DNA of 64,000 bases from Candidatus Nomurabacteria bacterium (GTDB lineage Bacteria > Patescibacteriota > Minisyncoccia > Phycocordibacterales > UBA918), in contig JACKGG010000002.1 in assembly GCA_020632035.1 (NCBI GenBank), positions 24,095 to 88,094 of the forward strand, written 5' to 3'. Below the pieces are notes generated by a model. It was not told the DNA's origin. It ran no database searches and was given only the letters and a program-made list of their open reading frames with translations. A program made the position numbers and the translations under genes. Positions within the stretch are counted from its first letter, which is position 1. Each line of letters starts with the position of its first letter. Below, piece by piece: positions 1,796 through 53,529 of this stretch.

Positions 1796-1965
1796 AGTGG
1801 GTTTGATTATACACAACAAAATCAATATCTAAAAACCTGTTTTGGCTTATTATAGTCTAGCCAAACGGGAATCGTGTACCAACACAAAATAACTGCTTGC
1901 TTCGCTTGAGCATTTTTTATATTCAAGGAAATAATTTAAGCTGGTTCTAATGTTTTACCGATAGT

Positions 1966-6810: not shown

Positions 6811-6867
6811 TCGCGATACACACAGGTTGACAGATTCATCGTGTGCTAGTATTTGTTACCAATAATT

Positions 6868-9231
6868 ATGTCAAAACAAACATTAGTAATAGTTGAGTCT
6901 CCGGCTAAGTCAAAGACTATCGAAAAATATTTAGGAAAAGGCTACAAAGTAATGTCTTCTATTGGTCACATTCGTGATCTACCTAAAACCAACAAAGACG
7001 CCGTCGATATCGAAGGTGGTTTTGTTCCTCGCTACATAATTTCCCCAGGAAAAGAAAAAGTGATTGAAGGTCTGCAAGCGGTCGCAAAAAAATCGGATGA
7101 GGTACTCCTGGCTTCCGATCCCGATCGTGAAGGAGAAGCGATTGCTTGGCACGTAGCTGAATTACTCAAGAAACACAACTCCAATCTCAAACGAGTATCT
7201 TTTAATGAAATTACTGAAGATGCAGTAAAAGAGGCGATTGCTCATCCACGAGATATCGACATAAATCTTAAAGAAGCCCAAGAAGCTCGGCGAGTATTAG
7301 ACCGTTTGGTTGGTTATGATTTATCTGGATTGATTTGGAAAAAAGTTCGTTACGGTCTTTCAGCTGGTCGAGTACAATCTCCTGCTCTACGTATAGTAAT
7401 GGAACGTGAGCGAGAAATAAGAGCTTTTATACCAGAGGATTATTTTGTTCTAACTTCTTATCTTAAAGAAAGTAAGGATATTATTCCCTTTACCTGCACT
7501 ATTGAACCAAAGGAAGAAAAAGAAGCTAACCGAATTAAGGATATTGGCGAAAAAAATGACTGGGAAATTAAATCTATTAAAGAGAGTGAGGCGAAACGAG
7601 CGCCTCGCCCTCCTTTTACCACGTCGACTCTCCAACAGACTGCCTCAACCCGGCTAGGCTTTACTCCATCGCGTACCATGGGCGCGGCGCAAAAGCTCTA
7701 CGAAGCTGGTTTTATTACCTACATGCGTACCGACAGCCCAACTTTAAGTACTCAAGCACAAAAACAAATACTAGCTTTAGTAGCAAAGGATTTCGGCAAA
7801 AACTATGTCTCACCAAGAAACTACAAATCTAAAAGCAAATCAGCCCAAGAAGCTCACGAAGCGGTCCGACCATCAAACTTCGCTAAGCGCTCTGCTGGTA
7901 GCACAGCCGATCAGAAAGCCCTCTACGAACTGATCTGGGATCGGGCGGTCTCATCTCAAATGGCAGAAGCAATTATCCTGCGGACAAAACTGTTGGCCAA
8001 TGTAACTAGCGAAAAAGAGACGATCCCCGACTTTAGTGTGAATGGATCGAGAATCATCTTTGATGGCTGGCTAAAAGTCGATACTCGAGCTAGAGGTGAA
8101 GATACCGAGGTACCCAAACTCGCTCAAGGTGACATACTTAAGTGTAAAGAAGTTGAGATTGAAGCCAAACAAACCCAACCGCCTAACCGATATTCAGAAG
8201 CAGGATTAATTAAGGAACTAGAAAAAAGAGGTATCGGCCGCCCTTCGACTTACGCTTCAATAATGAACACTATTGTCCAGCGCGGTTATGTTGCCAAAGA
8301 AGGTCGCACCCTAATCCCTACCGATACCGGGGACGTGGTTTCCTCATTTCTTGAAAAACACTTCGCTGATTACATTGGTGATGACTTCACCAGCGAAATG
8401 GAGAATGAGCTTGACGAAATCGCCACTGGTGATCGTTCATACAAGAAGACTCTAGGTGATTTCTACACACCTTTTAAAAAAGCCGTCGATGCAAAGGAAG
8501 ATATAGAAAAACTAACTACCCTCGGAGCAGGACCAAAAGAATTTCCTTGTCCTATCTGTAAAGCTGGGATGGTTAAAAAACTTGGGCGCAATGGCACCTT
8601 CCTGTCTTGTGAAAGATTTCCAGACTGTGACGGAGCTCGCCTGATAGACGGATCAGAAGTAAAACCTGACGAGCCAATCGGAAACCACCCAGAAACTGGA
8701 GAACCAATATTTATTATGAACGGTCGTTTCGGTCCGTACATTCAACTCGGAGAAACACCTGAAAAGGTTAGTGGTAAAAAAACTATAACACCAAGACGCT
8801 CTTCTTTACCGGCTGAGGTAAAACCTGAGGATGTCACTTTGGAAGATGCTGTTCGTTACCTGCTTCTACCCCGCGAGTTAGGAATTCACCCAAAGACGGG
8901 AGAACCCGTCATGGCTAATTCTGGTCAGTACGGTCCATACATCGCTCACGCGGGAGATTTTCGTTCTTTGAAAGATCCTAAGGACAACCCGTACGATATT
9001 ACATTCGACCGCGCCATGGAAATACTGACTGAACCAAAACAGCTTAGAAAGGGAGAAAAACTTCTCAAAGAACTTGGTGTAAATCCCAAGACTAAAAAGA
9101 TGGTCAACGTTATGGAATCAAAATCAGGCCGTTACTTAAAGAAAGGTTTCAAACGAATTGGTATTCCTGACAATATAAAAACTGACGACATTACTCTAGA
9201 AATTGCCATTGATCTACTGAAACAAAAGTAG
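6868..9231 (+). CDS. topA: DNA topoisomerase I
   Basis: TOPRIM N-terminus (LVIVESPAKSKTIEKYLG), topoisomerase IA core, C-terminal zinc ribbon (CPICKAGMVKKLGRNGTFLSCERFPDCDG). ATG at 6868 preferred over the upstream TTG at 6853. Confidence 0.92.
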   Translation: MSKQTLVIVESPAKSKTIEKYLGKGYKVMSSIGHIRDLPKTNKDAVDIEGGFVPRYIISPGKEKVIEGLQAVAKKSDEVLLASDPDREGEAIAWHVAELLKKHNSNLKRVSFNEITEDAVKEAIAHPRDIDINLKEAQEARRVLDRLVGYDLSGLIWKKVRYGLSAGRVQSPALRIVMEREREIRAFIPEDYFVLTSYLKESKDIIPFTCTIEPKEEKEANRIKDIGEKNDWEIKSIKESEAKRAPRPPFTTSTLQQTASTRLGFTPSRTMGAAQKLYEAGFITYMRTDSPTLSTQAQKQILALVAKDFGKNYVSPRNYKSKSKSAQEAHEAVRPSNFAKRSAGSTADQKALYELIWDRAVSSQMAEAIILRTKLLANVTSEKETIPDFSVNGSRIIFDGWLKVDTRARGEDTEVPKLAQGDILKCKEVEIEAKQTQPPNRYSEAGLIKELEKRGIGRPSTYASIMNTIVQRGYVAKEGRTLIPTDTGDVVSSFLEKHFADYIGDDFTSEMENELDEIATGDRSYKKTLGDFYTPFKKAVDAKEDIEKLTTLGAGPKEFPCPICKAGMVKKLGRNGTFLSCERFPDCDGARLIDGSEVKPDEPIGNHPETGEPIFIMNGRFGPYIQLGETPEKVSGKKTITPRRSSLPAEVKPEDVTLEDAVRYLLLPRELGIHPKTGEPVMANSGQYGPYIAHAGDFRSLKDPKDNPYDITFDRAMEILTEPKQLRKGEKLLKELGVNPKTKKMVNVMESKSGRYLKKGFKRIGIPDNIKTDDITLEIAIDLLKQK

Positions 9232-12499: not shown

Positions 12500-12653
12500 G
12501 TGTCTTGTGATGGAGTCGGTTATTACATAATCAATACTCGTTTTGGATGGATTGTTTCGAAACTCACAATCCATCTCAAAAAAGCTTCGACTCGTGCAAG
12601 GCTTTTCAAAGAAAAGCTGCACCCCGAGGCACAGCTTTCACTCCGTTCATTTG
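12500..12653 (-). repeat. Possible degenerate tRNA-3'-linked element downstream of tRNA-Leu(CAA)
   Basis: Minus-strand sense shows a terminator hairpin right after the tRNA, then ttgaaaag…cacgagtcgaa (partial complement of the T-loop), an A/T hairpin ggattgtgagtttcgaaacaatcc, and ccgactccatcac (degenerate copy of the tRNA T-loop/3' stem). Weak match to the family described in findings. Confidence 0.25.
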
Positions 12654-14160: not shown

Positions 14161-14231
14161 GGGTCTATAGTTTAGTGGTAAAATTTCGGTCTCCAAAACC
14201 GACGTCCGAGGTTCGAGTCCTCGTGGACCCG
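14161..14231 (+). tRNA. tRNA-Trp (anticodon CCA)
   Basis: Acceptor GGGTCTA/TGGACCC; anticodon stem TCGGT/ACCGA with loop CTCCAAA; T-arm CGAGG-TTCGAGT-CCTCG; discriminator G. CCA not encoded. Confidence 0.8.
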
Positions 14232-14232
14232 C

Positions 14233-14542
14233 ATAAAACATTACGTCCTAATGCGTCTAGCATTGGGGCGTTTATGTTTTACGGTACTAAGAGGACTCGA
14301 AAAGGTTGCCTGATATTTTGTGACGTAGGAGCAAAAATATCGACAACCTGTACTGAATCTGTAAGATTCGAGTCCTCGTGGACCCGCATAAAACATTACG
14401 TCCTAATGCGTCTAGCATTGGGGCGTTTATGTTTTACGGTACTAAGAGGACTCGAAAAGGTTGCCTGATATTTTGTGACGTAGGAGCAAAAATATCGACA
14501 ACCTGTACTGAATCTGTAAGATTCGAGTCCTCGTGGACCCGC
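14233..14542 (+). repeat. Two perfect tandem copies (155 bp each) of a tRNA-3'-end-linked structured element (family I), directly after tRNA-Trp
   Basis: Units 14233-14387 and 14388-14542 are identical. Each has an A/T hairpin (aaaacat…atgtttt), an anti-T segment gaggactcgaa, the core gaaaaggttgcctGATATTTTGtgacgtaggagCAAAATATCgacaacctgtactGAATCtgtaaGATTC, then gagtcctcgtggacccgc, a copy of the tRNA-Trp T-loop and 3' end. Overlapping track ORFs here are artefacts. Confidence 0.85.
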
Positions 14543-14546
14543 GAGC

Positions 14547-14582
14547 AACAAAACCAACCTGAATAAGGTTGGTTTTGTTTTG
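14547..14582 (+). terminator. Intrinsic terminator after the tRNA-Trp repeat array
   Basis: Stem caaaaccaacc / ggttggttttg followed by TTTTG. Confidence 0.6.
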
Positions 14583-14589
14583 CAAGCGA

Positions 14590-14722
14590 GGGCTACGAGG
14601 ACTCGAAAGCCGGAACCGGTACACAAGCCGACGAGCTTGCGAGGAGGGCTTGTCGGTGAGGCGGGGTCGAGAAAAATTTTCGTAGAAAATTTATTCGTGA
14701 CCGAGTCCTCATGGACCCATAA
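14590..14722 (+). repeat. Third, divergent tRNA-Trp-linked unit (family II architecture)
   Basis: Contains the anti-T segment gaggactcgaaag, a GC-rich hairpin, an A/T hairpin gagaaaaattttc-gta-gaaaatttattc, then gtgaccgagtcctcatggaccc, a degenerate copy of the tRNA-Trp 3' end. Confidence 0.6.
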
Positions 14723-14733
14723 GCCTAATCACT

Positions 14734-15816
14734 TTATTTATCGTAGACAGAAAAATGTGGAGCTGTTATATATCCAACAACTTGCACATCCTCTGTTCGC
14801 AGGCGACCTTTAGCATCTTTTACTAATGCATCAGCTTCTGCTTGAGTAGCGACCTCATACTTTGCAGTTAGACCATTTCTATAAGCTGCTTTTATAACAC
14901 TGACTATATCATCTGTACTTTTCATACCACCTTCGACTCCGTAATCCACACATGTACCATTTTGATGACAAGGATTTTTATGATTTACCCCAGGTGTTGG
15001 AGGCATAGCTTCAGTAACTCGAGCACCAACTACTGTTTTTGATACTTCTGCATGAAAATTAACTAACTTATCCAGAGTTATGGGAGAGACTGAACAAGTA
15101 TTTGAATTCTTGCAAGGCACACCGGCATCTGCCAGAGAACGACAGCCATTAAAACAGGCATCTTCCAATCCTGGCGTAATAGGTGGCTTAGGAGGGTCCA
15201 CACCATTTGGGCAATCCCAATGTTCTTCTTCGGTCTCTCCTCTTGCAACACTATATGTGCAATTACTCGGGAGACATTTCCAAATATTTCCCACTAAAGT
15301 ACAACCCATAGCTACCAGATCCCTGTTTTGTTGGAAAACTTTACTTGGTGGGACAGTATCATTCTGTTCAATACATTCAAGCGTAGACCATGGTCTATTA
15401 TTTAATTCACCTTCTCCACCAAGGAGTAAAGACTTCATAAGAGTGTCAACCAGCAGCCAAGCTCCCATAACAATTAGTATACCTATCAGAGCATTAGTCA
15501 TTTTTTGCTTTGCTTCAGTTTTAGCTGACGTATTACCGCCTGAAGTGACCAAGCTAAATCCTGCCCAAGCAGTAGTTATGGCAAATATCACCAGCATAAC
15601 TCCGATCAACCAGCCTAGGATATTTTCAGCCAACACCACTAAATGACAAGAATTACAGTCTGTTCCTTCGCAAGGAATTAATCCTCGGTCAACTTCCTCA
15701 GTCAGCACTTCTTGAGGCGGGTCTTCAACTGGAGCAGGTTCTTCTATTGGAGCAGAGAGCACGAAACCAGGTAAGACAATCAAACTAAACATCATTATAA
15801 AAATTGCCTTTTTCAT
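14734..15816 (-). CDS. Secreted Cys-rich protein with C-terminal two-helix pilin-like membrane domain (VirB2/TrbC-like topology)
   Basis: Signal peptide MKKAIFIMMFSLIVLPGFVLSAP, then a roughly 200-aa Cys-rich region. C-terminus (…ENILGWLIGVMLVIFAITTAWAGF…ALIGILIVMGAWLLVDTLMK) matches the two-hydrophobic-helix motif of the 31322-33793 paralog cluster. Confidence 0.7.
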   Translation of the reverse strand: MKKAIFIMMFSLIVLPGFVLSAPIEEPAPVEDPPQEVLTEEVDRGLIPCEGTDCNSCHLVVLAENILGWLIGVMLVIFAITTAWAGFSLVTSGGNTSAKTEAKQKMTNALIGILIVMGAWLLVDTLMKSLLLGGEGELNNRPWSTLECIEQNDTVPPSKVFQQNRDLVAMGCTLVGNIWKCLPSNCTYSVARGETEEEHWDCPNGVDPPKPPITPGLEDACFNGCRSLADAGVPCKNSNTCSVSPITLDKLVNFHAEVSKTVVGARVTEAMPPTPGVNHKNPCHQNGTCVDYGVEGGMKSTDDIVSVIKAAYRNGLTAKYEVATQAEADALVKDAKGRLRTEDVQVVGYITAPHFSVYDK

Positions 15817-24558: not shown

Positions 24559-24561
24559 CCG

Positions 24562-24987
24562 AAATAATGAGTCAGACCTTGTGTCTGGCTTATTATTTTG
24601 GTCAAGGGAATTGAAAAGGTTAGTCAGATATTTTGGAGCTTGCGAACAAAATATCGACAACCTGTACTGATCCTGTAAGGATCAATTCCCGCCCCGGGCA
24701 CCGAAATAATGAGTCAGACCTTGTGTCTGGCTTATTATTTTGGTCAAGGGAATTGAAAAGGTTAGTCAGATATTTTGGAGCTTGCGAACAAAATATCGAC
24801 AACCTGTACTGATCCTGTAAGGATCAATTCCCGCCCCGGGCACCGAAATAATGAGTCAGACCTTGTGTCTGGCTTATTATTTTGGTCAAGGGAATTGAAA
24901 AGGTTAGTCAGATATTTTGGAGCTTGCGAACAAAATATCGACAACCTGTACTGATCCTGTAAGGATCAATTCCCGCCCCGGGCACCG
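24562..24987 (+). repeat. Three tandem 142-bp copies of a tRNA-3'-end-linked structured element (family I), directly after tRNA-Leu(TAA)
   Basis: Units 24562-24703, 24704-24845 and 24846-24987 are essentially identical. Two identical 60-aa track ORFs 142 bp apart confirm the period. Each unit has a terminator-like hairpin (aataatgagtcagac…gtctggcttattatttt), an anti-T segment gggaattga, the core gaaaaggttagtcaGATATTTTGgagcttgcgaaCAAAATATCgacaacctgtactGATCCtgtaaGGATC, then aattcccgccccgggcaccg, a copy of the tRNA-Leu T-loop and 3' end. Confidence 0.85.
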
Positions 24988-26786: not shown

Positions 26787-26815
26787 TAAGAAAACCCACT
26801 TTGGTGGGTTTTTGT

Positions 26816-26946
26816 GTGCTCAGGAAGCAAAGTCTGGAAGACTTTGTGTGAGGGTTTGAAAAGGTTGCCAGTTATTTTGGAGCTTGTGAACAAAATAACG
26901 ACAACCTGTACTGAACTCGTAGAGTTCAATTCCTCTCCTGCGCACA
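26816..26946 (+). repeat. Single copy of the tRNA-3'-end-linked structured element (family I) after tRNA-Leu(TAG)
   Basis: A terminator hairpin (aaaacccac…gtgggttttt) at 26787-26815 precedes the unit. The unit has gagggtttgaaaaggttgccaGTTATTTTGgagcttgtgaaCAAAATAACgacaacctgtactGAACTCgtaGAGTTC, then aattcctctcctgcgcaca, a near-copy of the tRNA-Leu(TAG) T-loop and 3' end. Both stems differ from loci A and B only by compensatory changes. Confidence 0.8.
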
Positions 26947-28243: not shown

Positions 28244-29185
28244 ATGGAATTTAATTTGAAGAATATTGGAAATGCAGTAACGCATGTGACGGGTGTTGCT
28301 TCCCACATTCACTCGGGCTTATCAATGATAGCACCCTTGTTTGGTAAAAAGGTCAATCCTCTTGACGAGGGTACGACTACCACCCCACCCGATCAGAAAA
28401 AAAAGGGTGGCTTGTTTAGCATCGATGATGAAGTTGGTTACGGTCAGCTCTTAACGGAGCTAGATCGTAAGTACGTCGGTTTCATAACCGGCTGTACAAA
28501 TGATCACTACTACGACTTCGCTCACCCGGAGCGTAGGGATGGTCTGAAAGGTCTTTTGCGAAGAGCCGAGGCTGAAAGAAAGTTCGATGGTTACAGAACA
28601 ATTGTAACCAATATGACCAAAAACGGTCTAAGAAAAGCTCAGCTCGAAGAGATTGTTAAAGCTGACATAACCAGGCGGGCAAAAATTCGCCTCTCAGATA
28701 CTGTGGCTAGCAACCCAAGACAAGGAAATCAAAACCGAGGTCGCAATCAACAACAGCGCCCCATCCTTGATAAAAGTACGACCACAACTACCAAGAAGTG
28801 GGATGAGTACACCAAGGAAAAACCCTATGCAAAGGCTTATCTCGAGGTGTTTGCAGAAACCATTAAGAGAGCTTATCTGGAGAATTTGACCGAGGAACAA
28901 ATTCAAAGGCTTTCTATCGATAAAGAAGCCAACATCGATAACCCCGAAGCACTGGCAATTGCCTATGAGGCGGGGGTCGACTTTCTTCGGGCGACCGGTA
29001 TCCCGGTCATGTCAGCGATGTCAGACGAACCTGGTTCGTTTGGTATAAACGAAATCGGAGCCACTGTTGGCCAGGGCCTGTCGGCAATCGACAGAGGCTT
29101 GGAAGCTACGTACGCTGAAAGGCGTGCCCAGCGAGAAGCCGAAAGTGGCAGGTTTATAAAATTTCTCGAAAAATTCTTGAAATAG
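28244..29185 (+). CDS. Hypothetical protein
   Basis: 313-aa ORF with a strong upstream promoter. The next gene starts 11 bp downstream with the RBS GGGAGA. No recognisable domains. Confidence 0.6.
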   Translation: MEFNLKNIGNAVTHVTGVASHIHSGLSMIAPLFGKKVNPLDEGTTTTPPDQKKKGGLFSIDDEVGYGQLLTELDRKYVGFITGCTNDHYYDFAHPERRDGLKGLLRRAEAERKFDGYRTIVTNMTKNGLRKAQLEEIVKADITRRAKIRLSDTVASNPRQGNQNRGRNQQQRPILDKSTTTTTKKWDEYTKEKPYAKAYLEVFAETIKRAYLENLTEEQIQRLSIDKEANIDNPEALAIAYEAGVDFLRATGIPVMSAMSDEPGSFGINEIGATVGQGLSAIDRGLEATYAERRAQREAESGRFIKFLEKFLK

Positions 29186-29195
29186 GGAGAACAAA

Positions 29196-30566
29196 ATGAA
29201 AGACGAAACAAAAAATACGTGGATGGAGGGTGTTACAGACACCCTGAAGAAAGTTGCTGTAGGGGCTGGCTTGTTAGCTTCGGTCGTAGACTGGGGTAAT
29301 AACGGACCACCTCTGCAGAGAGCCTGGCAGGAAGCAAACCAGACAACTACCAGAAACCTGGCAATTATCTGGAAAGGCCTTTTCCAAGCCATACTTGTCC
29401 TTGTTTTGGCTTTTGTCCTTACCTGCTTAAAGGTTTACACGGGACAGGATTGGACTATTTGGCTTAGTTTTGGCGTTGCCATACTTAGTACAACCCTGGT
29501 CATCATGACCTTTCTAGGCTCGCGCCTGGTGTTGGGTACGGCGGTACTGGGTACCCTAAGTGGGTGGCTACAAGATAAGGACAAGTCGATCAGTGTCTGG
29601 GGGGCTGAGGTAAAACTCTTCACCCTGGTCATGACACTTGCCGGACTATTCTTGGCTCCCCAATACTTTCTGGTGGCCTGGCCATTCGAAAACAATCTTG
29701 GGGCCTTCTGGTTAGTTTTTCTCGGAGCTATCCTTTTGTCATTTCTGACATTGACGATACCGAGCAAGCTGATCAAAGGATTGGCGTGGGTATTCATTCC
29801 TACGACAATGATTGCCGCTCTCTGGTCAACTCTCCCAGGGACGTACACCGGGGTCATGTTCAACAAGAACGGTGTTGCTAAGTATATGCAAGAACCGTCA
29901 GAGTTTGATCAAAACAGCCTCCCGGTGGTATACGTTCAGTACACTCCTAAAACTTGCCGCCCTGAAGACAAAAAACACTTCATGAAAGCGGTCAACGAAA
30001 AAGGAGAAGAGGTAAACGGGATGTTTCCTTACGCAACGGAAGGAACCTGCGCTTCTCCAAGGAGCGGAGTCAAGCTTATCCCAGTCACTCGGGCGACAGC
30101 TTTGGCATATCAACCATGGAGTAGAATACAGGCTTTCTTTGGTGGCTTTAAAACCACAATTGAAAGTCTGGACGAAGTGCTTAAAGTGGCCGAGGAGCAG
30201 CCGCAACGGCCTTCCTACGACTACAACTCACCGGCGATCATGCCGGACCAACCGGTCGCAGCCAGTCTGAAACCGGCAAGGGCCGAACCAGTGGCACAGC
30301 AGTGCCCTGGTCCGGATTCGATCCAGCTTGAAATCTGCAACGGAGATCAAGTTTGGTCTGATCCAGTCGTCGTCCAAGTGGGCTGTGGAGTTATTGGGGT
30401 CTACAACCTGGACCTGGTCCGATACCAGGGCCTAGTTAATGGGGAGTGGATCGAATTCACCACCCCAACCAGTACAAAAGGTAAAAAAATAAGCGCACTA
30501 AAGTGGTGCGCAAGAAATTCCTTTGTTGCTGAGCGAGAAATGCCGCTCTTGCGCAAAGTGATATAA
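29196..30566 (+). CDS. Hypothetical polytopic membrane protein (about 6 TM) with C-terminal Cys-containing extracytoplasmic domain
   Basis: 456 aa. The N-terminal 230 aa are mostly hydrophobic helices; the C-terminal 220 aa are soluble with 6 Cys. Forms an operon with the upstream ORF; adjacent to the pilin-like cluster. Confidence 0.6.
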   Translation: MKDETKNTWMEGVTDTLKKVAVGAGLLASVVDWGNNGPPLQRAWQEANQTTTRNLAIIWKGLFQAILVLVLAFVLTCLKVYTGQDWTIWLSFGVAILSTTLVIMTFLGSRLVLGTAVLGTLSGWLQDKDKSISVWGAEVKLFTLVMTLAGLFLAPQYFLVAWPFENNLGAFWLVFLGAILLSFLTLTIPSKLIKGLAWVFIPTTMIAALWSTLPGTYTGVMFNKNGVAKYMQEPSEFDQNSLPVVYVQYTPKTCRPEDKKHFMKAVNEKGEEVNGMFPYATEGTCASPRSGVKLIPVTRATALAYQPWSRIQAFFGGFKTTIESLDEVLKVAEEQPQRPSYDYNSPAIMPDQPVAASLKPARAEPVAQQCPGPDSIQLEICNGDQVWSDPVVVQVGCGVIGVYNLDLVRYQGLVNGEWIEFTTPTSTKGKKISALKWCARNSFVAEREMPLLRKVI

Positions 30567-30641
30567 GCCCTACGGGGCGCCAAACGGGTAAGCACCTAGT
30601 GCTGCCCGTTTTTTTATATCTTATAAAAATATTTGTTTAAT

Positions 30642-31181
30642 CTAGTTTGTCACTGGAGGTTCAATACTTCTATCAACGGGACCTGGGTTTCCTCCTCCGG
30701 TGCCAGGACCAGGATTACTTCCTCCAGTGCCGGGGCCTGGATTACTTCCTCCAGTACCTGGACCAGGGTTTTCACCTCCTGTGCCGGGACCGGGGTTTTC
30801 ACCTCCTGTGCCGGGACCGGGGTTTTCACCACCGGGGATACTCGTATCAGGTAATACAAAAGCATCTCCACAGTCTGGTCCGCTTGGGTTATTGGCACAA
30901 TCTAGTTGTTTATCAAGACCAAAAGTAGAAGTAGCAATACTCAATATAGCAAAAGCTGAAAGCATCACCACTAGGCCAATTATCCCAAAAGTGATATGCT
31001 TTACTCCCTGCCCCCTCGCTGTTTCGTTGGCAGAATTAACAAAGTATTCTACACAACCCCAAACAAAAACAAGAAAAGCTACCGCACTAAGAAGAGCGAT
31101 AGTAGGAAACAATATAATGTCATTAAATTTATCTACAAATTTAGCAGCTTCTTCGGTCGCTTGTTGTTGAGGTGTTGCCAT
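30642..31181 (-). CDS. Two-helix pilin-like membrane protein (VirB2/TrbC-like topology) with C-terminal (GENPGPGTG)x6 repeat tail
   Basis: Two hydrophobic helices (ILFPTIALLSAVAFLVFVWG…/…TFGIIGLVVMLSAFAILSIA) separated by a short polar loop, then six nine-residue Gly/Pro repeats. Confidence 0.7.
   Translation of the reverse strand: MATPQQQATEEAAKFVDKFNDIILFPTIALLSAVAFLVFVWGCVEYFVNSANETARGQGVKHITFGIIGLVVMLSAFAILSIATSTFGLDKQLDCANNPSGPDCGDAFVLPDTSIPGGENPGPGTGGENPGPGTGGENPGPGTGGSNPGPGTGGSNPGPGTGGGNPGPVDRSIEPPVTN
30683..30843 (-). repeat. In-frame 27-bp tandem repeat (6 copies) encoding GENPGPGTG
   Basis: cctcctccggtgccaggaccaggattactt… and related units repeated head-to-tail; the track protein shows GENPGPGTGG x3 then GSNPGPGTGG x2 and GGNPGP. 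Confidence 0.85.
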
Positions 31182-31321
31182 AGATAAATATTAGCATACC
31201 CAACTAATGACAAAACTGTTTATCCAATAATTTTCTAAACAAAAACCACCCGCAGGTGGTATTGTTTTGTTTTACGCGTAGTACTTCTGATCAAAGTGAA
31301 AATCTTCAATGAAATACTATT

Positions 31322-31738
31322 TTAAGAACTTGGAGGAGGTATAGTGACCCCTTTAACATCTGTATCACTAACAGCGGTTCCTTTGTCGAGACCGGTGCTT
31401 GATGAGAGTAAGTTGATTACTCCCCAGAAAACGATAATGATTACAAAACCTAGCGTTGCGTAGATCATTAAGCTTTTTCCTTTTTCTTTTGCTTCATCGT
31501 TGGCTCCACCAAAAATGAAGTAGCGGAACATACCCCAGACAAAGAACAGGAAGGCAATCCCAATAATAAACGGAATAAGTATTGTGTTTGCAAAGGTTAG
31601 TAGATCTTCAAGTAATTTACCAAAACCTCCACCGGTACCGTCATCTGCTAAACCAGCGGCTGAAACCAGAAATGGCAAGGCAAGCATTGAAAAGCTTAGT
31701 GCTATCAGTAAGTTTTTCTTTATAGTTGAGACTATCAT
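31322..31738 (-). CDS. Secreted two-helix pilin-like protein (VirB2/TrbC-like topology), paralog 1
   Basis: Signal peptide, then …NTILIPFIIGIAFLFFVWGMFRYFIFGGANDEAKEKGKSLMIYATLGFVIIIVFWGVINLLSSSTGL…. Confidence 0.7.
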   Translation of the reverse strand: MIVSTIKKNLLIALSFSMLALPFLVSAAGLADDGTGGGFGKLLEDLLTFANTILIPFIIGIAFLFFVWGMFRYFIFGGANDEAKEKGKSLMIYATLGFVIIIVFWGVINLLSSSTGLDKGTAVSDTDVKGVTIPPPSS

Positions 31739-31760
31739 GTATATAAGAATTAATTGATAA

Positions 31761-32153
31761 TTAAGTGCTTGGTGCTACTGGTATATCAGCATTAATTTTA
31801 GGAATATTTTGCACCTCTTTACCACCAAGGCCTGTACTTGATGAAAGCAAGTTGATTACTCCCCAGAAGACAATTATAAGCACAAAACCTAGGGTAGCCC
31901 AGATCATTAAGCTTTTTCCTTTTTCTTTTGCTTCGTCGTTGGCCCCACCAGCAATAAAGTAGCGGAACATACCCCAGACGAACACCAAGAAACCAATACC
32001 AATAATAAATGGAATAATGACAGTATTGGTGAATTCTAAAATATTCCCCAGTAGAGTTCCAAACTTTCCGCCATTTGGATTAAATTCAGCCAAGGCCAGC
32101 ATAGGCATGACAGACAATATTGCTCCACTAGTGAGAAAACTTATTTTTTTCAT
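31761..32153 (-). CDS. Secreted two-helix pilin-like protein, paralog 2
   Basis: …NTVIIPFIIGIGFLVFVWGMFRYFIAGGANDEAKEKGKSLMIWATLGFVLIIVFWGVINLLSSSTGL…; about 75% identical to paralog 1. Confidence 0.7.
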   Translation of the reverse strand: MKKISFLTSGAILSVMPMLALAEFNPNGGKFGTLLGNILEFTNTVIIPFIIGIGFLVFVWGMFRYFIAGGANDEAKEKGKSLMIWATLGFVLIIVFWGVINLLSSSTGLGGKEVQNIPKINADIPVAPST

Positions 32154-32241
32154 ATGTTTTATAAATAAACTGATAACGTTGTAACGTTTACCTTATTATA
32201 TGACACTAGTTAGTATGTCTAGTGAGTTATTCACCTCCTGC

Positions 32242-32619
32242 TTATGGAACGATAACTGAAGGAATATTCTGGATTGACTCTCCCTCAAGTCCAGTACTGC
32301 TAGTTAATAGGTTGATTACACCAAAGAAAATGATGATCACCACAAAACCAATAACAGCATGGATCATTAAACTTCTTCCTTTTACTTTTTTCTCGTCATC
32401 GGCTCCACCCATTATGAAATATAGAAACATTCCCCAAACAAAGAATAGGAAACCAATACCAATAATAAACGGTATGAGGACGTCATTTATGAACTGCATC
32501 AAGTTAATCAGAAGATCTTCAAACCCACCACCATTTGATGAATCAGCAATTTGTGCTGAAGAAACAAAAGGTAGAAGTAATACTGAACTAACTGGAATTG
32601 TGGCTAAAATCTTTTTCAT
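32242..32619 (-). CDS. Secreted two-helix pilin-like protein, paralog 3
   Basis: …NDVLIPFIIGIGFLFFVWGMFLYFIMGGADDEKKVKGRSLMIHAVIGFVVIIIFFGVINLLTSSTGL…. Confidence 0.7.
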   Translation of the reverse strand: MKKILATIPVSSVLLLPFVSSAQIADSSNGGGFEDLLINLMQFINDVLIPFIIGIGFLFFVWGMFLYFIMGGADDEKKVKGRSLMIHAVIGFVVIIIFFGVINLLTSSTGLEGESIQNIPSVIVP

Positions 32620-32700
32620 AAATTAATATTATTTAATTGCTTAAAATTATACCCGGATAAACTAAAATGTAAAGGGTCTTCTGTGGTCACTAAGCCTAGC

Positions 32701-32949
32701 CTAGCCGAACAAAGTTGACTTTATCATGGCTACAATCCCCCAAGCACTTATCATTACCACAAACGCTATAACGGCAGATACTGCGTAACTCTTGCCCTCT
32801 TCTACTTTTTTTCCGTCTCCGGCATGAATGATCCAGGAATCAATCATCTTCCAAACAAAATACACGAACATAGCCGCAAATATAGTTGGTATGATTATGT
32901 TTATGAGGCCGATTATTAAACCTACTAGTTCTTTGTAATCTGTTGGCAT
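32701..32949 (-). CDS. Small two-helix membrane protein, divergent pilin-like paralog
   Basis: 82 aa with two hydrophobic helices flanking GDGKKVEEGKS; same architecture, lower similarity. Confidence 0.55.
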   Translation of the reverse strand: MPTDYKELVGLIIGLINIIIPTIFAAMFVYFVWKMIDSWIIHAGDGKKVEEGKSYAVSAVIAFVVMISAWGIVAMIKSTLFG

Positions 32950-32975
32950 GATAATTTGATTAAAGGTTGTAAGTA

Positions 32976-33239
32976 TTAAAAAGCATTTACTACGTTTTGC
33001 ACAATCTGGGTAATGGCTACTGCACCAATCAGTATCACTCCACCGATTACTCCATATAAGAGTGCTTGAGAAGCCACCTTTATTTTCTCTGGATTACCAC
33101 GGGCCGTCACATACAAGAAGCCAGCGTATATAAGATAAAATATTACAATCGGCGTTGCCATTATTATAACCACATTCAAAACAGCGACCAGCAACTCTGA
33201 TATGTTCGGAAATTTTAATGGGTTATCGAAATTTTCCAT
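32976..33239 (-). CDS. Small two-helix membrane protein, pilin-like paralog (subfamily B)
   Basis: …VVIIMATPIVIFYLIYAGFLYVTARGNPEKIKVASQALLYGVIGGVILIGAVAITQIV…; nearly identical motif to the C-terminus of the 33254-33793 protein. Confidence 0.65.
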   Translation of the reverse strand: MENFDNPLKFPNISELLVAVLNVVIIMATPIVIFYLIYAGFLYVTARGNPEKIKVASQALLYGVIGGVILIGAVAITQIVQNVVNAF

Positions 33240-33253
33240 ATTAAATATATTTT

Positions 33254-33793
33254 CTAAGCCCGGAAAGCATTTATTATATTTGATAGTATTTCCGACAGGG
33301 CGACAGAGCCTAGTAAAATCACACCTCCAATAATGGCATACGTGAGTGCGGTAGTCGCTTCTTGTATTTTGGTTGGGTTTCCTCTGGCAGTTACGTAGAG
33401 GAAACCAGCATAAATAATATACAAAACAATGATCGGCGTAGCGATTACGATGAATATACTAAGCAGTGCTGACAATAAACCTTCTATTGAAGTGATACTC
33501 TCACTTAAAGGGCTTTTTACAGTGTATTTTATTCCAGTAGTCTCAACGCTAGTTGATTTTGTTCCTGGTTCAGGTTCAAGTTCTTCACCCCAACAATCAC
33601 AGTCAAAAAATCCATCTTCTGCAGGACTTGGGTTACATCTTGGAAGATTTGGTGGTTCACAAGAGCATACGTTACCGGGCTGGAGACCGTTACATGGTTC
33701 TTGAGCGATTGAAACTTGTGCGACACTGAAAAGTGTCAGGATAAACAGAAAAATGCTTACACTGATCACTGTTTTGTTTATACTGTATTTCAT
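33254..33793 (-). CDS. Secreted Cys-rich protein fused to C-terminal two-helix pilin-like domain (subfamily B)
   Basis: Signal peptide; Cys-rich segment CNGLQPGNVCSCEPPNLPRCNPSPAEDGFFDCDCWGEE; then …FIVIATPIIVLYIIYAGFLYVTARGNPTKIQEATTALTYAIIGGVILLGSVAL…. Confidence 0.7.
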   Translation of the reverse strand: MKYSINKTVISVSIFLFILTLFSVAQVSIAQEPCNGLQPGNVCSCEPPNLPRCNPSPAEDGFFDCDCWGEELEPEPGTKSTSVETTGIKYTVKSPLSESITSIEGLLSALLSIFIVIATPIIVLYIIYAGFLYVTARGNPTKIQEATTALTYAIIGGVILLGSVALSEILSNIINAFRA

Positions 33794-33799
33794 ATTTTA

Positions 33800-35107
33800 T
33801 TAATATTCATTACCCAGCCTTGAGGCTGCGTCTGACACGGCACCGTCGAGATCACGCCGGTTTTCATTAATATCTTGCGTCATTGTGGCTAAGATTTGAT
33901 TAGAAGCAGACAATTCTGGGTTGAGCCAACCTAGCGCAATAGACGCCGATTTATAGGCCACCCTGCCGTAAAGATTGTTACTACCTAGTGCAACCGTGCT
34001 TCGGTATGCTGGCACCATATTGCTTTCAACCGCAATTCTATTGGCAATAGTTGCCCCAGCAAAGTTGGTCATGACTGAGCCGGCACCAACTTTGTTATCT
34101 GATGATTTGAGCAATGAAATAGCATAGAACTTTCCGTAAGTACGCCTGATGGTGGCTTCGGCTCCTTGTGGAACTTCTGCAATATCAAAGTTAAGATTAG
34201 GATTCAGCTTTTCTATCTGAGCACCCTCACTTCCATAGCCAAAGTAAGTAGTTAATCTTTCGGCAACGAACTCAGAGCGGTCATCTTTAAAGGATCTGTT
34301 CCAGGAATAAAGAGAATTACTTGGTCTGCTAAATCTAGTATAGAAATCGGCCGCAGCTCGAAGGGGGTCACTACTCCCATTTTCAGATAGACGCAATTTT
34401 ACCTGGTACTTATCACTTCCATCTAGGAGAACTGCTTGGGAGCCACCCTGGAAAAGTAAGGCTGAAATTATTCCAAAAGCATTGCGAACATTGTTGTACT
34501 CACCCATAGCTACCACCGCTTGCCTGATCGTTCTATCTGAGTCACGTTTAATTAATTCCGGAAAGATAGAATTTACCAAATCTTCCCAAGTGGCCGGCGC
34601 TGATAAGAATCCGGAGTTGGTGAAAATATTTTTGTTCCAATACATCATTAGAGGGTCAACCGCAATCGGGTAACCATACAAACCATCATTAAGAGCAAAA
34701 ATCTGAGCTCCGTCTATATAGGCGTCTTTAATATTCCTGAGCGGAAAGAATTCGAAAGAAATTGGTTGGATTCTCTTTCGAGTCTCGACCAATTTTTCAT
34801 GAGACACCAAAACCAAGTCCGGACCAGTCCCGTCAGCCAGTGCATTAACTAATCTTTCATCAAATTGAGTTGGCGAGTAATAACGATATGATACATTGTT
34901 GTATGACTCATCAATCTCGCTGAGTTCTCTAATTATTTTATTGATCGGGTCTGCCGGCAAGGTGCCCCAAATGGTCACGCTACCAACCACTGCTTGTGGC
35001 TCATCTGAACCAGAACCACCATCAAAAGTAGACAAGATTACTAAGGCCGTAAGCCCTAATCCGACAAAGATAATCACCAAGGCTAATTCAAACGGTCGGA
35101 GTTTCAT
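33800..35107 (-). CDS. Membrane-anchored extracellular solute-binding-protein-like protein (SBP family 1 fold)
   Basis: N-terminal TM anchor, then motifs typical of sugar-type SBPs (VTIWGTLP…, PDLVLVSHEKLVE, YGYPIAVDPLMMYWNKNIF). No cognate permease or ATPase adjacent. Confidence 0.55.
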   Translation of the reverse strand: MKLRPFELALVIIFVGLGLTALVILSTFDGGSGSDEPQAVVGSVTIWGTLPADPINKIIRELSEIDESYNNVSYRYYSPTQFDERLVNALADGTGPDLVLVSHEKLVETRKRIQPISFEFFPLRNIKDAYIDGAQIFALNDGLYGYPIAVDPLMMYWNKNIFTNSGFLSAPATWEDLVNSIFPELIKRDSDRTIRQAVVAMGEYNNVRNAFGIISALLFQGGSQAVLLDGSDKYQVKLRLSENGSSDPLRAAADFYTRFSRPSNSLYSWNRSFKDDRSEFVAERLTTYFGYGSEGAQIEKLNPNLNFDIAEVPQGAEATIRRTYGKFYAISLLKSSDNKVGAGSVMTNFAGATIANRIAVESNMVPAYRSTVALGSNNLYGRVAYKSASIALGWLNPELSASNQILATMTQDINENRRDLDGAVSDAASRLGNEY

Positions 35108-51649: not shown

Positions 51650-52405
51650 TTAAAGCGCAAAGAAAGTTCCTACAAAGTAGGCCAGTACAGCGGCTGTTCC
51701 ACCAACTGCCACTACTTCAAACAAAGAAGACTTTAGATTTGCTCCTATCACTCTCCATTTTAGTAAACCTAGTACCACCAAGGCAAATAGCGTACCTAAG
51801 GTTGAGTACAAGAAAGCAGTCGAATGGTCGCCATTTTCTTGCAGCATAAATGGTAGAAGTGGTATAGAACCAAACGCCATAAATGAGAAAAAAGTAGCCA
51901 AGCCAGTAAATATTTCGTTCTCCCCTCTTGGGTCAGATTGTTCTAGTTTGTGGTGCATCATGAAATCTAGCCAGTAGTTCTCATTATTCTTATAGGTATT
52001 CGCCAGAATATTTGCGTCTTCTTGAGTGAAACCTTTGTCTTGCAAAATCCTCATTGTTTCTGCTTTTTCAGTTTCTGGATCAGCTTTTAGTCCAGCTAAT
52101 TCCCTCTCCCTAGTGACCATATACAAATCCTTTTCAGATCGTACCGAAAGGAAGTTGCCAAGACCCATCGAGGCAGCATCGGCAAAAAGATTGGCTAATC
52201 CAAATAATAAAACCACCACGAAAGATATCTGAGTGGTTGTGTCACTCGACAAAGAAGCCCCAGCCCCTCCGGCCACTACAGCAAAGGTAGTAACGATTCC
52301 ATCGATACCACCATATATGACTTCTTTAAAATAATCTGCGAACGCTCCTTTAAACTTGTTTTTTAATCTATCCATAACGTCCAATATAATATCACAAATA
52401 AACAC
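51650..52405 (-). CDS. VIT1/CCC1-family iron/manganese transporter
   Basis: N-terminal …VIYGGIDGIVTTFAVVAGGAGA… and a C-terminal cluster of TM helices, typical of the VIT family. Confidence 0.75.
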   Translation of the reverse strand: MFICDIILDVMDRLKNKFKGAFADYFKEVIYGGIDGIVTTFAVVAGGAGASLSSDTTTQISFVVVLLFGLANLFADAASMGLGNFLSVRSEKDLYMVTRERELAGLKADPETEKAETMRILQDKGFTQEDANILANTYKNNENYWLDFMMHHKLEQSDPRGENEIFTGLATFFSFMAFGSIPLLPFMLQENGDHSTAFLYSTLGTLFALVVLGLLKWRVIGANLKSSLFEVVAVGGTAAVLAYFVGTFFAL

Positions 52406-52503
52406 TTAAATAGCGAATCGGGCTAGCTTTTTTCTAATACTCTGTTATTATGTTGCGCACTTGTTGGGTCACCTCAGCAAGGCCAGTGACTTCACAGTTA
52501 CAT

Positions 52504-52575
52504 GGTCCCATCGTCTAATGGTTAGGACGTCAGGTTTTCATCCTGGAAATCGGGGTTCGATTCCCCGTGGGATCA
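52504..52575 (+). tRNA. tRNA-Glu (anticodon TTC)
   Basis: Acceptor GGTCCCA/TGGGATC; D-arm GTC-TAATGGTTAG-GAC; anticodon loop TTTTCAT; T-arm CGGGG-TTCGATT-CCCCG. Confidence 0.8.
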
Positions 52576-52960
52576 CAAAACGAGACTTCGTCTCGACACA
52601 AGGAGCGCGCCGAAGGCGCGCGAGAAGAAGAAAGTGGAAAAATACCCTGTCGCGTAGCGACGGATTGGGACGGGACGGGTGCGAGAGTACTTAGTAGATT
52701 TTGCACGAAGTGCAAAAATATACTTAGTAACTCGTGACCACAAGTACTTTTGTCTCAAAAATAATTCAGGGCCCATGTTTTCGTTCGTGATCCAAGAGAA
52801 AGACGCTAGTGCGTCTTTTGTGGGAATCGAACCAGCGGAGTCATCCTGCACGGAGCGAAGCGAGTACAGAAGTCGAGGCATGTCCCGCGGCACTTCTTAT
52901 TTTGTGAGGTACGAAACAAAATAAGTTAGTGACCGTCAGGATCATTCCCCGGGGGATCAC
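52576..52960 (+). repeat. tRNA-Glu-linked structured element(s) (family II architecture) ending in a copy of the tRNA-Glu 3' end
   Basis: Several hairpins (cgagacttcgtctcg; gcgcgccgaaggcgcgc; tttgcacgaagtgcaaaa). Anti-T segment gggaatcgaacc at 52822-52833. A/T hairpin cttattttgt-gaggtacgaa-acaaaataag. Then gtgaccgtcaggatcattccccgggggatcac at 52929-52960, which copies the tRNA-Glu T-loop and 3' end (attccccgtgggatcac). Confidence 0.65.
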
Positions 52961-52964
52961 TAAG

Positions 52965-53005
52965 AACAAGAAAAAGAGCTTCTGAAGGAAGCTCTTTTTC
53001 TTGTT
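52965..53005 (+). terminator. Intrinsic terminator after the tRNA-Glu-linked element
   Basis: Perfect stem aacaagaaaaagagcttc / gaagctctttttcttgtt. Confidence 0.6.
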
Positions 53006-53016
53006 ACAATTAATCT

Positions 53017-53529
53017 ATGCGGGCAATTGGGATTTTAAAACTAATTATTGGCGTTTCCTTGGCAATAAACGCAATGGTTCAAATCTTGAATCATGAGACC
53101 TGGTGGTTTATCCAAAACGTAAACCTTATCTTTCATGAGGCGGGTCATGTGCTATTCATGTTCTTTGGTGAGACCCTACACATACTAGGAGGATCTTTGG
53201 TAGAGATACTTATTCCGATCTTAGTCACTATTCATTTTATCCATTCTAAGCAGATTTTTTCTGCTGCCTGTACTTGTTGGTGGTCCTCAACAGCTTTCTT
53301 GAGTGTCAGTATTTATGCCTCAGACGCACAAGAAAGAGTTCTTCCCCTTATTACCAATGATGTATCAACTCATGACTGGTTCAATTTACTCTTAAAATTT
53401 AATTTACTAAAATACGATGATTTAGTTGGGTTTGTATTTTTTTGCAGTAGTCTAGTGTCTGTCAGTTTGTTGATATTACTTATCCTTAGGGACAAAGATG
53501 TAAATAAAAAGCTCCTGTCTTTAGGTTAA
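53017..53529 (+). CDS. Hypothetical integral membrane protein
   Basis: 170 aa, 4-5 hydrophobic helices, His-rich short loops (HEAGHVLFMFFGETLH). Confidence 0.5.
   Translation: MRAIGILKLIIGVSLAINAMVQILNHETWWFIQNVNLIFHEAGHVLFMFFGETLHILGGSLVEILIPILVTIHFIHSKQIFSAACTCWWSSTAFLSVSIYASDAQERVLPLITNDVSTHDWFNLLLKFNLLKYDDLVGFVFFCSSLVSVSLLILLILRDKDVNKKLLSLG

Follow-up and report, generated by a model that had tools for sequence, protein, structure and literature searches.

Small tRNA-linked elements with a conserved folded core in Patescibacteria, possibly cassettes that insert at the T-loop

Introduction

The attC site of integron cassettes and the attP(+) hairpin of the phage CTXphi are both folded single strands that exchange one strand with their target, an exchange followed by replication. 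In CTXphi attP(+) the spacer is about 90 nt long, and integration restores the target on one side. A direct repeat that runs from the T-loop to the 3' end of a tRNA gene is the classical footprint of integrases that target the T-loop. Bacteria of the candidate phyla radiation have tiny genomes that are thought to hold little mobile DNA. Here we analyse a stretch of 64,000 nucleotides (below, the window) from Candidatus Nomurabacteria bacterium, phylum Patescibacteriota (assembly GCA_020632035.1, contig JACKGG010000002.1, positions 24,095 to 88,094 of the forward strand), and in it the small structured element behind the gene for tRNA-Glu, together with its relatives behind other tRNA genes there and in related genomes. 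Our analysis leads us to lean, with less than even confidence, towards a reading in which these elements are non-autonomous cassettes that insert at the T-loop by way of a folded single-strand attachment site and regenerate the tRNA as they do so.

A full-text literature search returned no description of these elements. The nearest case that it gave, a different phenomenon, is a report of tRNAs in Patescibacteria whose anticodon loops contain group I introns (PMC13011429).

Results

The element behind tRNA-Glu

The segment of tRNA-Glu that runs from the T-loop to the 3' end, which we call A and in which the full CCA is not encoded, is copied downstream as a direct repeat. The two copies (ATTCCCCGTGGGATCAC at 52560 and ATTCCCCGGGGGATCAC at 52944) lie 384 nt apart from start to start, a repeat finder aligns them over 20 nt (52560-52579 against 52944-52963) at 90% identity, and the 17-mer from ATTCC to the tRNA 3' end, with up to 2 mismatches allowed, has only two sites on both strands of the 64 kb. 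The copy ATCATTCCCCGGGGGATCAC shares 16 of its 20 bases with the tRNA, and 15 of 17 from ATTCC on. An initial annotation of this DNA had listed the tail copy, a complement of the T-loop, an A/T hairpin, GTGACCG and a terminator-like palindrome, and the repeat finder recovers each of these where it had been placed (Table 1). Three details change. The run of hairpins had been put about 385 bp behind the tRNA; the copy does lie at 364-384 nt, but the hairpins begin directly behind the tRNA, in a proximal unit. The copy of T-loop and 3' end is present, but its T-loop part is mutated (ATCATTCC, where sister elements have ACGATTCC). The anti-T segment GGGAATCGAACC is indeed a perfect 12-nt complement of the T-arm GGTTCGATTCCC (52554-52565), but the complement is longer than described, for the GTGATCC upstream of it also pairs with GGATCAC (52954-52960), the last bases of the tail copy, and the outer inverted repeat as a whole joins TTCGTGATCC (52784-52793) to GGATCACTAA (52954-52963).

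Between this outer strand, P0, and the anti-T strand, which forms the inner helix P1 with the copy, stands a hairpin, Px, and analogous hairpins with loops CTGGGAG or CTGC occupy the equivalent place in most relatives. The domain that follows anti-T is specific to what we call family 2; it consists of a short helix P2 (GC/GC) closing a GGA/GA internal loop, a variable GCGAAGC hairpin and then GTCCCGCGG, the signature of subtype 2b. The A/T hairpin beyond it is a module that the Glu element has in common with the cores of family 1, and the GTGACCG and CCGTCAGGATC stretch that leads into the copy is kept as GTGACCGTCAGGA/CGATTCC (the slash marks the junction) in the related loci L146, L148, L155, L160, L182 and L189. 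A simple terminator scan does not call the closing palindrome because its T-run lies inside the stem; the scanner likewise overlooks obvious sites of hairpin and T-run in which the T-run pairs with an A-run.

Three short hairpins open the proximal unit, and a long A/T hairpin that ends in GTGACCAC (52683-52741) follows them; the unit has no tRNA copy. The covariance model of family 2 described below matches it weakly (52613-52759, 15.5 bits, E = 0.0075), and its module GGGGTCGAGAGTACTTAGTA...CTCGTGACCAC also precedes family-2 units in L012, L022 and L096.

Folded as RNA, the Glu unit (52800-52965) has z = -2.6; with the outer stem included (52780-52965) and DNA parameters it forms one closed structure with z = -4.1. 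A repeat that is unique in the window, an outer pair and folds beyond those of shuffles therefore confirm the observation, which is not a chance arrangement.

Table 1. Coordinates of the elements and their parts. Positions are those of the window unless a related locus is named.
Locus	Feature	Position	Strand	Evidence or remark
tRNA-Glu	tRNA-Glu(UUC)	52504-52576	+	ARAGORN; Rfam RF00005, 63.2 bits
tRNA-Glu	Proximal degenerate family-2-like unit	52577-52786	+	Sequence and weak model match
tRNA-Glu	P0 5' strand GTGATCC	52787-52793	+	Inverted repeat; closing stem in DNA fold
tRNA-Glu	Px hairpin AAGACGC TAGT GCGTCTT	52800-52817	+	Folds; between P0 and anti-T
tRNA-Glu	Anti-T segment GGGAATCGAACC	52822-52833	+	Inverted repeat; 5' strand of P1 with downstream copy
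tRNA-Glu	Family-2-specific domain	52834-52895	+	Alignments
tRNA-Glu	A/T hairpin CTTATTTTGT-GAGGTACGAA-ACAAAATAAG, UGA..GAA-type apex	52896-52925	+	Inverted repeat
tRNA-Glu	GTGACCG (52929-52935) and CCGTCAGGATC	52929-52943	+	3' strands of core helices, leading into copy
tRNA-Glu	Copy A of tRNA-Glu tail ATCATTCCCCGGGGGATCAC	52941-52960	+	Direct repeat
tRNA-Glu	18-bp perfect palindrome, T-rich 3' arm, terminator-like	52965-53005	.	Inverted repeat; next gene from 53017
tRNA-Trp	Two identical family-1 units	14233-14542	+	Tail copies at 14368-14387 and 14523-14542
tRNA-Trp	Family-2 unit, subtype 2a, distal end of array	14588-14720	+	Family-2 model, 78.9 bits, E = 5e-23
tRNA-Leu(UAA)	Three identical family-1 units	24561-24986	+	
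tRNA-Leu(UAG)	Terminator-like hairpin, then one family-1 unit	26787-26945	+	
tRNA-Leu(CAA)	Degenerate element	12500-12652	-	Sequence; fold z = -4.2
L095	Mirror arrangement	6840-7320		
L007	Mirror arrangement	1885-2150		Reverse orientation

A second family and its covarying helices

The initial annotation had proposed a second family of elements with the same layout as the first, on the strength of the Glu element and the third unit behind tRNA-Trp. We aligned 18 elements with a GTGAC/CGA-type junction and built a covariance model from the alignment. The scaffold runs, from 5' to 3', through anti-T (..TCGAA), a P2 of 3-4 bp, the GGA/GA loop, the variable hairpin, GG and a GGUC/GACC helix to the copy; the GGUC/GACC helix includes the copy's C56 and carries the A/T hairpin. 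Paired cells make up 87.6% of this alignment but 69.9% of shuffled ones, and cells with changes on both sides number 44, against 15; none of 500 shuffles attains these figures, and the signal is lost when the 3' partners are shifted by 1-3 columns. In a larger, model-fitted alignment 92.7% of cells pair and 99 double changes are found, the shuffles across both alignments staying at about 70% and 15-27. The pairs of P1 covary across the family, and the middle pair of P2 is AU, CG, GC or UA depending on the member.

The model scores the Glu element at 64.5 bits, beside the 78.9 bits of the third Trp unit. In 100 Patescibacteria loci, chosen only for containing family 1, it finds 39 further matches at E < 1e-6, 30 of them within about 350 nt downstream of a tRNA on the same strand. 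Independently of the model, the sequence pattern TCGAANNNCGGARCGATGTGAG retrieves 73 metagenome loci, of which inspection leaves 65 as genuine and 8 as chance matches in GC-rich coding DNA; 48 of the 65 have a tRNA called by ARAGORN 21-351 nt upstream, and tRNAs of various kinds are concerned.

The family is thus borne out, with one refinement, namely that Glu and the third Trp unit represent different subtypes of it. The subtype of the Glu element (GTCCCGCGG...CCGTCAGGA/CGATTCC) also occurs behind His, Pro, Gln, Arg and Gly tRNAs; that of the third Trp unit reads GGGGTCG ... GTGAC/CGA, and a third subtype is GC-rich. The model also matches family-1 units, skipping the P2 domain (E = 4e-5 to 8e-4), and the modules anti-T/GAA and GGnUnG-A/U-hairpin are therefore common to both families. 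Family 2 is a real family, related to family 1 and not independent of it. Its members are gene-less, 100-160 bp long and widespread in Patescibacteria.

The occupied tRNA genes of the window

Clear elements stand behind four of the eight tRNA genes of the window, those for Trp, Leu(UAA), Leu(UAG) and Glu, and a degenerate one of another type behind Leu(CAA), in line with the four or five first proposed; altogether there are at least 8 small non-coding units in 64 kb. The third unit at tRNA-Trp does follow the plan of the Glu element, as had been claimed, with an anti segment at 14590-14607, an A/T hairpin at 14669-14696 and GTGACC with the tail copy at 14697-14719. Its anti strand GGGCTACGAGGACTCGAA, almost unbroken, is the pairing partner of the copy CGAGTCCTCATGGACCC, and the unit folds as a four-way junction on a 16-bp closing stem GGGCTACGAGGACTCG/CGAGTCCTCATGGACCC (z = -5.2 against shuffles). 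Behind Leu(UAG) the order is P0 CAGGA, Px, anti-T GAGGGTTTGAA, core and copy. The element behind Leu(CAA) has an anti-acceptor hairpin, an A/T hairpin with GTGAGTTTCGAAAC at its apex and a diverged copy CGACTCCATCACAAGACAC; the family-2 model gives no match to it. Each window unit contains the complement of its own tRNA's T-loop and T-stem and ends in a copy that runs from the T-loop to C74/75; the complement therefore changes with the tRNA. The window tRNA genes concerned (14232, 24560, 26786, 52576) have only C or CC after the discriminator base, and the duplicated segment ends there too.

The inserts measure 105-385 bp and contain no plausible open reading frame (ORF), and Pfam scans of about 50 window ORFs find no integrase, transposase, reverse transcriptase or other recombinase. 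The initial annotation had allowed that ordinary att sites of a prophage or genomic island, with integrase genes nearby, might explain the tail copies, an objection that the absence of an integrase among the window ORFs scanned therefore removes. There is a weaker form of it, in which the copies are att sites of tRNA-integrated prophages or islands, once served by a tyrosine integrase and later almost wholly deleted. It would account for the direct repeat from T-loop to 3' end and for small cargo between copies at two related loci (L054, L083), but we judge it very improbable: apart from the small ORF-free inserts and the lack of an integrase among the ORFs scanned, deletion remnants would not keep a covarying core, identical tandem units and an inverted copy matched to the tRNA, viral contigs give no match, and no full-length island or phage with the core beside attP and an integrase was seen.

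Isolated inverted copies of the acceptor strand, with no core, lie right behind tRNA-Lys in L086 and L018 and at 12590-12640 (minus strand) of the window, where they pair with the 3' end of that same tRNA to give a hairpin; inverted tRNA-tail segments are therefore more widespread than cores. Could the elements as a whole be non-functional by-products that need no machinery, local inverted and direct duplications that arose where replication slipped or switched template on the palindromic T-arm? The T-loop TTCGAA is itself a palindrome, lone inverted tails such as that after tRNA-Lys in L086 do occur, and pseudo-tRNA copies decay by insertions and deletions. We give this idea very little weight nevertheless, since many Patescibacteria lineages and metagenomes preserve a core of 55-130 nt in both sequence and structure, and the breakpoints are always the same.

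The window codes for a housekeeping set usual in genomes of this kind (SerRS, DprA, TopA, RelA/SpoT, ClpB, IF-2, GyrA, FtsA/Z, Ddl and others), and the products encoded in the immediate neighbourhood are MiaA, a pilin, ParB, a rhodanese, VIT1 and Ddl. DprA, which processes incoming single-stranded DNA in natural transformation and would be relevant if cassettes travel in that form, is encoded at 5938-6810. A 1227-aa ORF at 1966-5649 has no Pfam match, and about ten ORFs (82-456 aa) fill 28244-35107; the four of these that were scanned (313, 456, 179 and 435 aa) have no Pfam match either.

Architecture common to both families

The core pattern of family 1 matches 106 stretches in a collection of species-representative genomes, nearly all of them Patescibacteria (Paceibacteria, Kaiserbacteria, Nomurabacteria, Vogelbacteria, Minisyncoccia and metagenome-assembled genomes, MAGs, labelled Saccharibacteria); one Nomurabacteria MAG (L005) carries an element behind Leu(UAG) almost identical to that of the window. 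In 2.9 million viral contigs neither the family-1 nor the family-2 pattern finds a match. Among the 192 tRNAs of the 106 related loci and the window, 93, drawn from all amino-acid classes, are followed by a second occurrence of their 3'-terminal 20 nt, up to 4 mismatches being allowed, and in most cases the match is exact.

Units follow the layout tRNA[..A] - X - A' - core - A. Segment A begins in the T-loop, at T54 in family 1 and at C56 in family 2, and extends to C74/75; A' repeats it in inverted, complementary form. Position X holds a terminator-like hairpin and in rare cases genes instead, and the core is a conserved junction of several covarying helices. The copies always start in the T-loop and end at C74/75, and the units form tandem arrays in which both families may be mixed. 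In both families the complement is usually split into P0 (the outer 4-7 nt, pairing with the acceptor strand), Px, 2-3 nt and anti-T (P1), as in CAGGA...GAGGGTTTGAA at Leu(UAG) and GTGATCC...GGGAATCGAACC at Glu. In family 1 there is also a hairpin of 4 bp; its triloop is GTA and ends on T54, and it covaries with hardly an exception, 365 of 371 pairs being Watson-Crick. A terminator-like hairpin with a T-run usually stands between tRNA and element and another after the copy, and a promoter scan finds no sigma-70-like promoter at the elements, so a unit restores a complete tRNA gene and does not by itself form an evident transcription unit.

The tRNA-sense strand has 92 GNA triloops, as against 5 occurrences of their complement; the loops are strongly strand-specific, and one particular strand therefore folds. 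Is that strand RNA or DNA? Rare G-U pairs and mini-hairpins of the GCGAAGC type are typical of folded DNA, and in the elements G-U pairs make up about 3% of cells and GCGAAGC/GNA mini-hairpins are common; loops with tandem G.A pairs and the occasional G.U wobble, on the other hand, look more like RNA.

The chief alternative to cassettes, possible though rather doubtful in our view, is that the elements are structured RNAs read through from the tRNA gene, in which the A'/A helix imitates the acceptor/T-arm stack beneath a cap formed by the conserved junction. Such RNAs could be processed by RNase P, RNase Z or the CCA-adding enzyme, or could act as tRNA-specific decoys, sponges or processing signals, with the arrays produced by unequal crossing-over. 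This reading gains from the strong covariation of the helices with conserved unpaired GUACUGA, GAAA and GG, from strand-specific loops that are always in tRNA sense, from the tandem G.A and UGA/GAA internal loops (a GAGAA variant of anti-T even gives G.A pairs with the T-loop), from G.U wobbles in P1, and from the compensatory changes that separate the Leu(UAG) elements of the window and L096. In addition, a 3' strand that runs unbroken from T-stem to acceptor, opposite a split 5' strand, recalls the coaxial stack of a tRNA. On the other hand, terminators with T-runs usually lie between tRNA and element, and space for a promoter is lacking; so few G-U pairs would be unusual in an RNA family; and family 1 leaves the last 4-5 nt of the acceptor strand unpaired and so is a poor mimic of an acceptor stem. 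Rfam offers no match: with Rfam 15 only the 8 window tRNAs reach the gathering score, and E-value scans of 52400-53100 and 14225-14740 give matches at no more than about a third of it, mostly to models of eukaryotic microRNAs and plastid untranslated-region hairpins. Nor does an RNA account for the duplicated tRNA(1-53), the genes between units, the copy of an rplK end and the patchy occupancy with replacement of one family by another, all described below.

Single-stranded DNA would also be the substrate of transposons of the IS200/IS605-PATE and REP/RAYT kinds or of others driven by HUH nucleases, with anti-T as the guide to the T-loop and the transposase encoded elsewhere, which we regard as improbable. 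IS608 recognises its target and its ends by base pairing with a guide 5' of a hairpin. The strand-specific hairpins rich in GNA triloops, the guide-like complement of the target directly 5' of a conserved hairpin, the many units without coding capacity, and an anti strand that pairs with the sequence immediately upstream at L098 would all suit such an element. IS200/IS605 transposition, however, duplicates no target and uses targets of 4-5 nt, whereas here 20-22 nt are duplicated and the guide would be 9-20 nt long; there is a single main hairpin module instead of distinct left and right ends, and the window ORF scans find neither a Y1 transposase (Y1_Tnp) nor another HUH protein.

Mirror arrangements, cargo and turnover

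At L095 (two units), L007, L022, L012 and L071 the arrangement is mirrored: positions 1-53 of the tRNA are duplicated and fused at 53/54 to the Px-core, after which come a few T-loop bases, a short hairpin, a spacer with a TAnAAT box and the intact tRNA. The truncated copies in L007 and L022 are two bases longer and reach through the first two T-loop Ts. Since the mirror joins fall at 53/54, the breakpoint is the T-loop in both arrangements, and the newly supplied part is either a 3' part with a terminator or, in the mirror form, a 5' part with a promoter-like spacer. Some truncated copies (L012, L071) have further hairpin insertions in the D-arm region.

Genes may lie between the copies. At a tRNA-Gly gene (L054) a 155-aa deaminase and a 128-aa ORF stand among three tail copies, and behind each of these two genes come a core and a fresh copy; small ORFs lie among three tRNA-Asn tail copies at L083, and L077 is similar. 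At L098 (about 1940-2150, reverse orientation) two tandem family-1 cores follow directly on the stop codon of rplK, the gene for ribosomal protein L11, and where other units have the tRNA tail, these have the final 11 nt of rplK with TAA, in direct and inverted copies; the locus has no tRNA, and its anti strand matches the left copy perfectly.

Several features speak of turnover. Tandem units are identical to one another while distal copies are more diverged, the same tRNA is held by different families in different genomes, a conserved cluster of Cys, Leu, Lys and Leu tRNAs is occupied patchily, and near-identical cores occur at different tRNAs of one genome. The anti strand is closer to the tRNA-side copy than to the distal copy in 16 cases, against 8 of the reverse.

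Presence/absence or copy-number variants among near-identical strains, sought by way of flanking genes, were found at the Glu locus only. In L003 (50-330) a tRNA-Glu(CUC) replaces the UUC form, the trailer is shorter and unrelated and the 5' half of the family-2 element is different, while from GTCCCGCGG / GTCCCGCGGCAC through the downstream gene the sequence is 100% identical to the window, which implies a recombination breakpoint inside the Glu element. L001 (1356-1545) matches the window from the end of tRNA-Glu on (52560-52580), its left side being unrelated (Peptidase_S51, hydrolase) and without a tRNA; the junction, ctctagggtcac/aaaacgag, falls at the tRNA 3' end and would reflect either a large insertion or rearrangement there or an assembly chimera. 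Both variants are suggestive, but they could be assembly chimeras. At other loci the contigs end inside the repeats.

Two further observations concern neighbouring insertions. In L089 (about 5620-5690, reverse orientation), L100, L043 and L006 the GTA loop of family 1 holds 60-80 extra nucleotides with GTAA on both sides, and L089 and L006, which belong to one MAG, have the left end ataaatttctttc of the insert in common; the inserts have the look of a further mobile sequence, also small, for which the elements are the target. In L134 (about 330 nt upstream) and in the tRNA-Thr region of L011, tRNA genes that ARAGORN misses because sequence resembling a group I intron interrupts them lie directly upstream of elements, in agreement with the introns reported from Patescibacteria tRNAs.

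Discussion

Our analysis indicates that the initial observation was correct and understated. How could tRNA genes keep acquiring these units and stay intact? In the cassette reading, to which we incline without thinking it the probable truth, a unit and the tRNA gene would recombine within the T-loop. Folding of A' on A in the top strand would recreate the duplex sequence of the target, and a recombinase supplied in trans may recognise the core that forms the apex. A circular or single-stranded element would then exchange one strand with the duplex of the tRNA gene, and replication would yield A - X - A' - core - A. The tRNA gene would stay intact because the cassette brings its own A and terminator or, in the mirror form, positions 1-53 and a promoter-like spacer; the old tail would be left behind as the distal copy. 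This logic of strand exchange would lead to cargo between A and A', to tandem arrays and to an intact target. Moreover, A' would travel with the left-hand A, from which one expects an anti strand closer to the tRNA-side copy, as in the 16 cases against 8. Architecture, breakpoints, arrays, cargo and covariation are thus observed, whereas the folded single strand, its exchange and the enzyme acting in trans belong to the model.

A number of points weigh against cassettes. The scan of about 50 window ORFs finds no recombinase, and no excision, circle or empty site was seen in the metagenome contigs, which break at the repeats. Cargo is rare (3 of about 100 loci). The two strands fold with nearly equal energy (-37.9 against -37.0 kcal/mol in family 1, -43.5 against -40.1 kcal/mol in family 2). 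A simple site-specific exchange cannot re-match A'/A to a new tRNA, a step that needs gene conversion or compensatory change. In attC the stem is conserved and the apex variable, while in the elements it is the reverse. Finally, the G.A loops, the conserved unpaired nucleotides and the compensatory changes between apparent orthologues fit a functional RNA equally well. The readings as HUH-driven transposons, as island remnants and as machinery-free duplications are less likely than either cassettes or RNAs.

We propose, as a possibility that we ourselves think rather doubtful, that Patescibacteria, chiefly Paceibacteria, may have a new cassette-integration system with tRNA genes as its landing platform. 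Its folded modules, with two or more related kinds of core, would work in an integron-like or CTX-like manner. It may rely on a new recombinase and on a stem matched to the target, which could be adjusted to whichever tRNA or, as at L098, to the end of a protein gene. Single-stranded DNA taken up by natural competence, on which these organisms depend, would be the obvious substrate of such a system.

What is at stake depends on the reading. Mobile cassettes would mean that genomes of the candidate phyla radiation change and capture genes by a route so far unrecognised, and would point to a recombinase that reads a folded junction and a target-matched stem, a stem that might be re-targeted and thus be of interest for genome engineering. 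RNAs, on the other hand, would form a large new class of tRNA-specific structured RNAs at about half of the tRNA genes, with a bearing on the maturation or control of tRNAs whose CCA is not encoded. Either way, assemblies of metagenomes come apart at tRNA loci because of the elements, and annotation can be misled by their tail copies and truncated tRNA copies.

Comparison with known systems

A few identities can be set aside. A tRNA intron, group I or protein-spliced, is rejected, for in-silico deletion around 112 family-1 cores gives only trivial joins to the intact upstream tRNA; an intact tRNA always adjoins the elements so examined and those of the mirror type. The strand order of the conserved junction does not fit a hammerhead or another small self-cleaving ribozyme, for which Rfam is also empty, and the GGA/GA loop of family 2 is off by one nucleotide from the register of a classical K-turn, so that we describe it as a tandem G.A loop only. 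Guide arrays of the TIGR or box C/D-like kind are different too, having repeats of 8-12 nt and spacers of 9 nt beside Nop-domain genes (PMC12045711).

The group I introns share with the elements the phylum and the kind of host gene, and both are structured, RNA-like insertions common in very small genomes; the introns, however, interrupt the anticodon loop (35/36) and self-splice, whereas the elements lie outside an intact tRNA, are much smaller and have no group I core. The t-elements of plant mitochondria, mascRNA and the tRNA-like domains of bacterial Y RNAs also stand beside or behind genes with a helix that imitates the acceptor/T-arm stack. In the elements, unlike these, base pairing takes up the T-loop itself, the 3' strand reproduces the neighbouring tRNA exactly instead of being a generic mimic, and terminators flank the unit; there is again no Rfam match.

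Like miniature inverted-repeat transposable elements, the units are small, non-coding and present in many copies per genome, but their inverted repeat is the local tRNA tail and not a family-specific sequence, and the duplication is of 20-22 nt with tRNA-defined ends instead of a fixed 2-10 bp. They depart from PATE and REP sequences in the 20-nt duplication and the one main hairpin module.

Closer are the islands and prophages that use tRNA genes and their gene-poor derivatives (CIMEs), in which the crossover also falls in the T-loop, a new tRNA 3' end is supplied, the old end remains as a direct repeat and units accrete in tandem. The present elements differ in being only 100-400 bp long without an integrase, in having an inverted tail and a folded core, and in occupying about half of the tRNA genes of a genome well under 1 Mb. 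CTXphi and other elements that exploit Xer likewise have inverted target-like copies that fold in single-stranded DNA, the layout target, genome, inverted site, spacer and hybrid target, and common tandem arrays; the target here is the T-loop and not dif, phage genes are absent, and in place of the spacer there is a conserved structured core.

In integrons, as here, the imperfect inverted repeat at the end of a cassette (attC) folds on one strand into a bulged hairpin, and integration at a fixed platform gives the succession of target part, cargo, inverted arm, apex and target part, in arrays with many short cassettes. But the platform of the elements is any tRNA T-loop, not an attI beside intI, and their arrays begin at tRNA genes. 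They have no RYYYAAC/GTTRRRY boxes, the stem being the local tRNA tail and its complement (GAGGACTCGAA/TTCGAGTCCTC), which differs between tRNAs; most carry no gene, and neither intI nor a tyrosine recombinase is among the window ORFs scanned. Thus, on our comparison, the elements resemble folded sites of the attC and CTX type and T-loop-targeting islands most, but fail the defining features of each.

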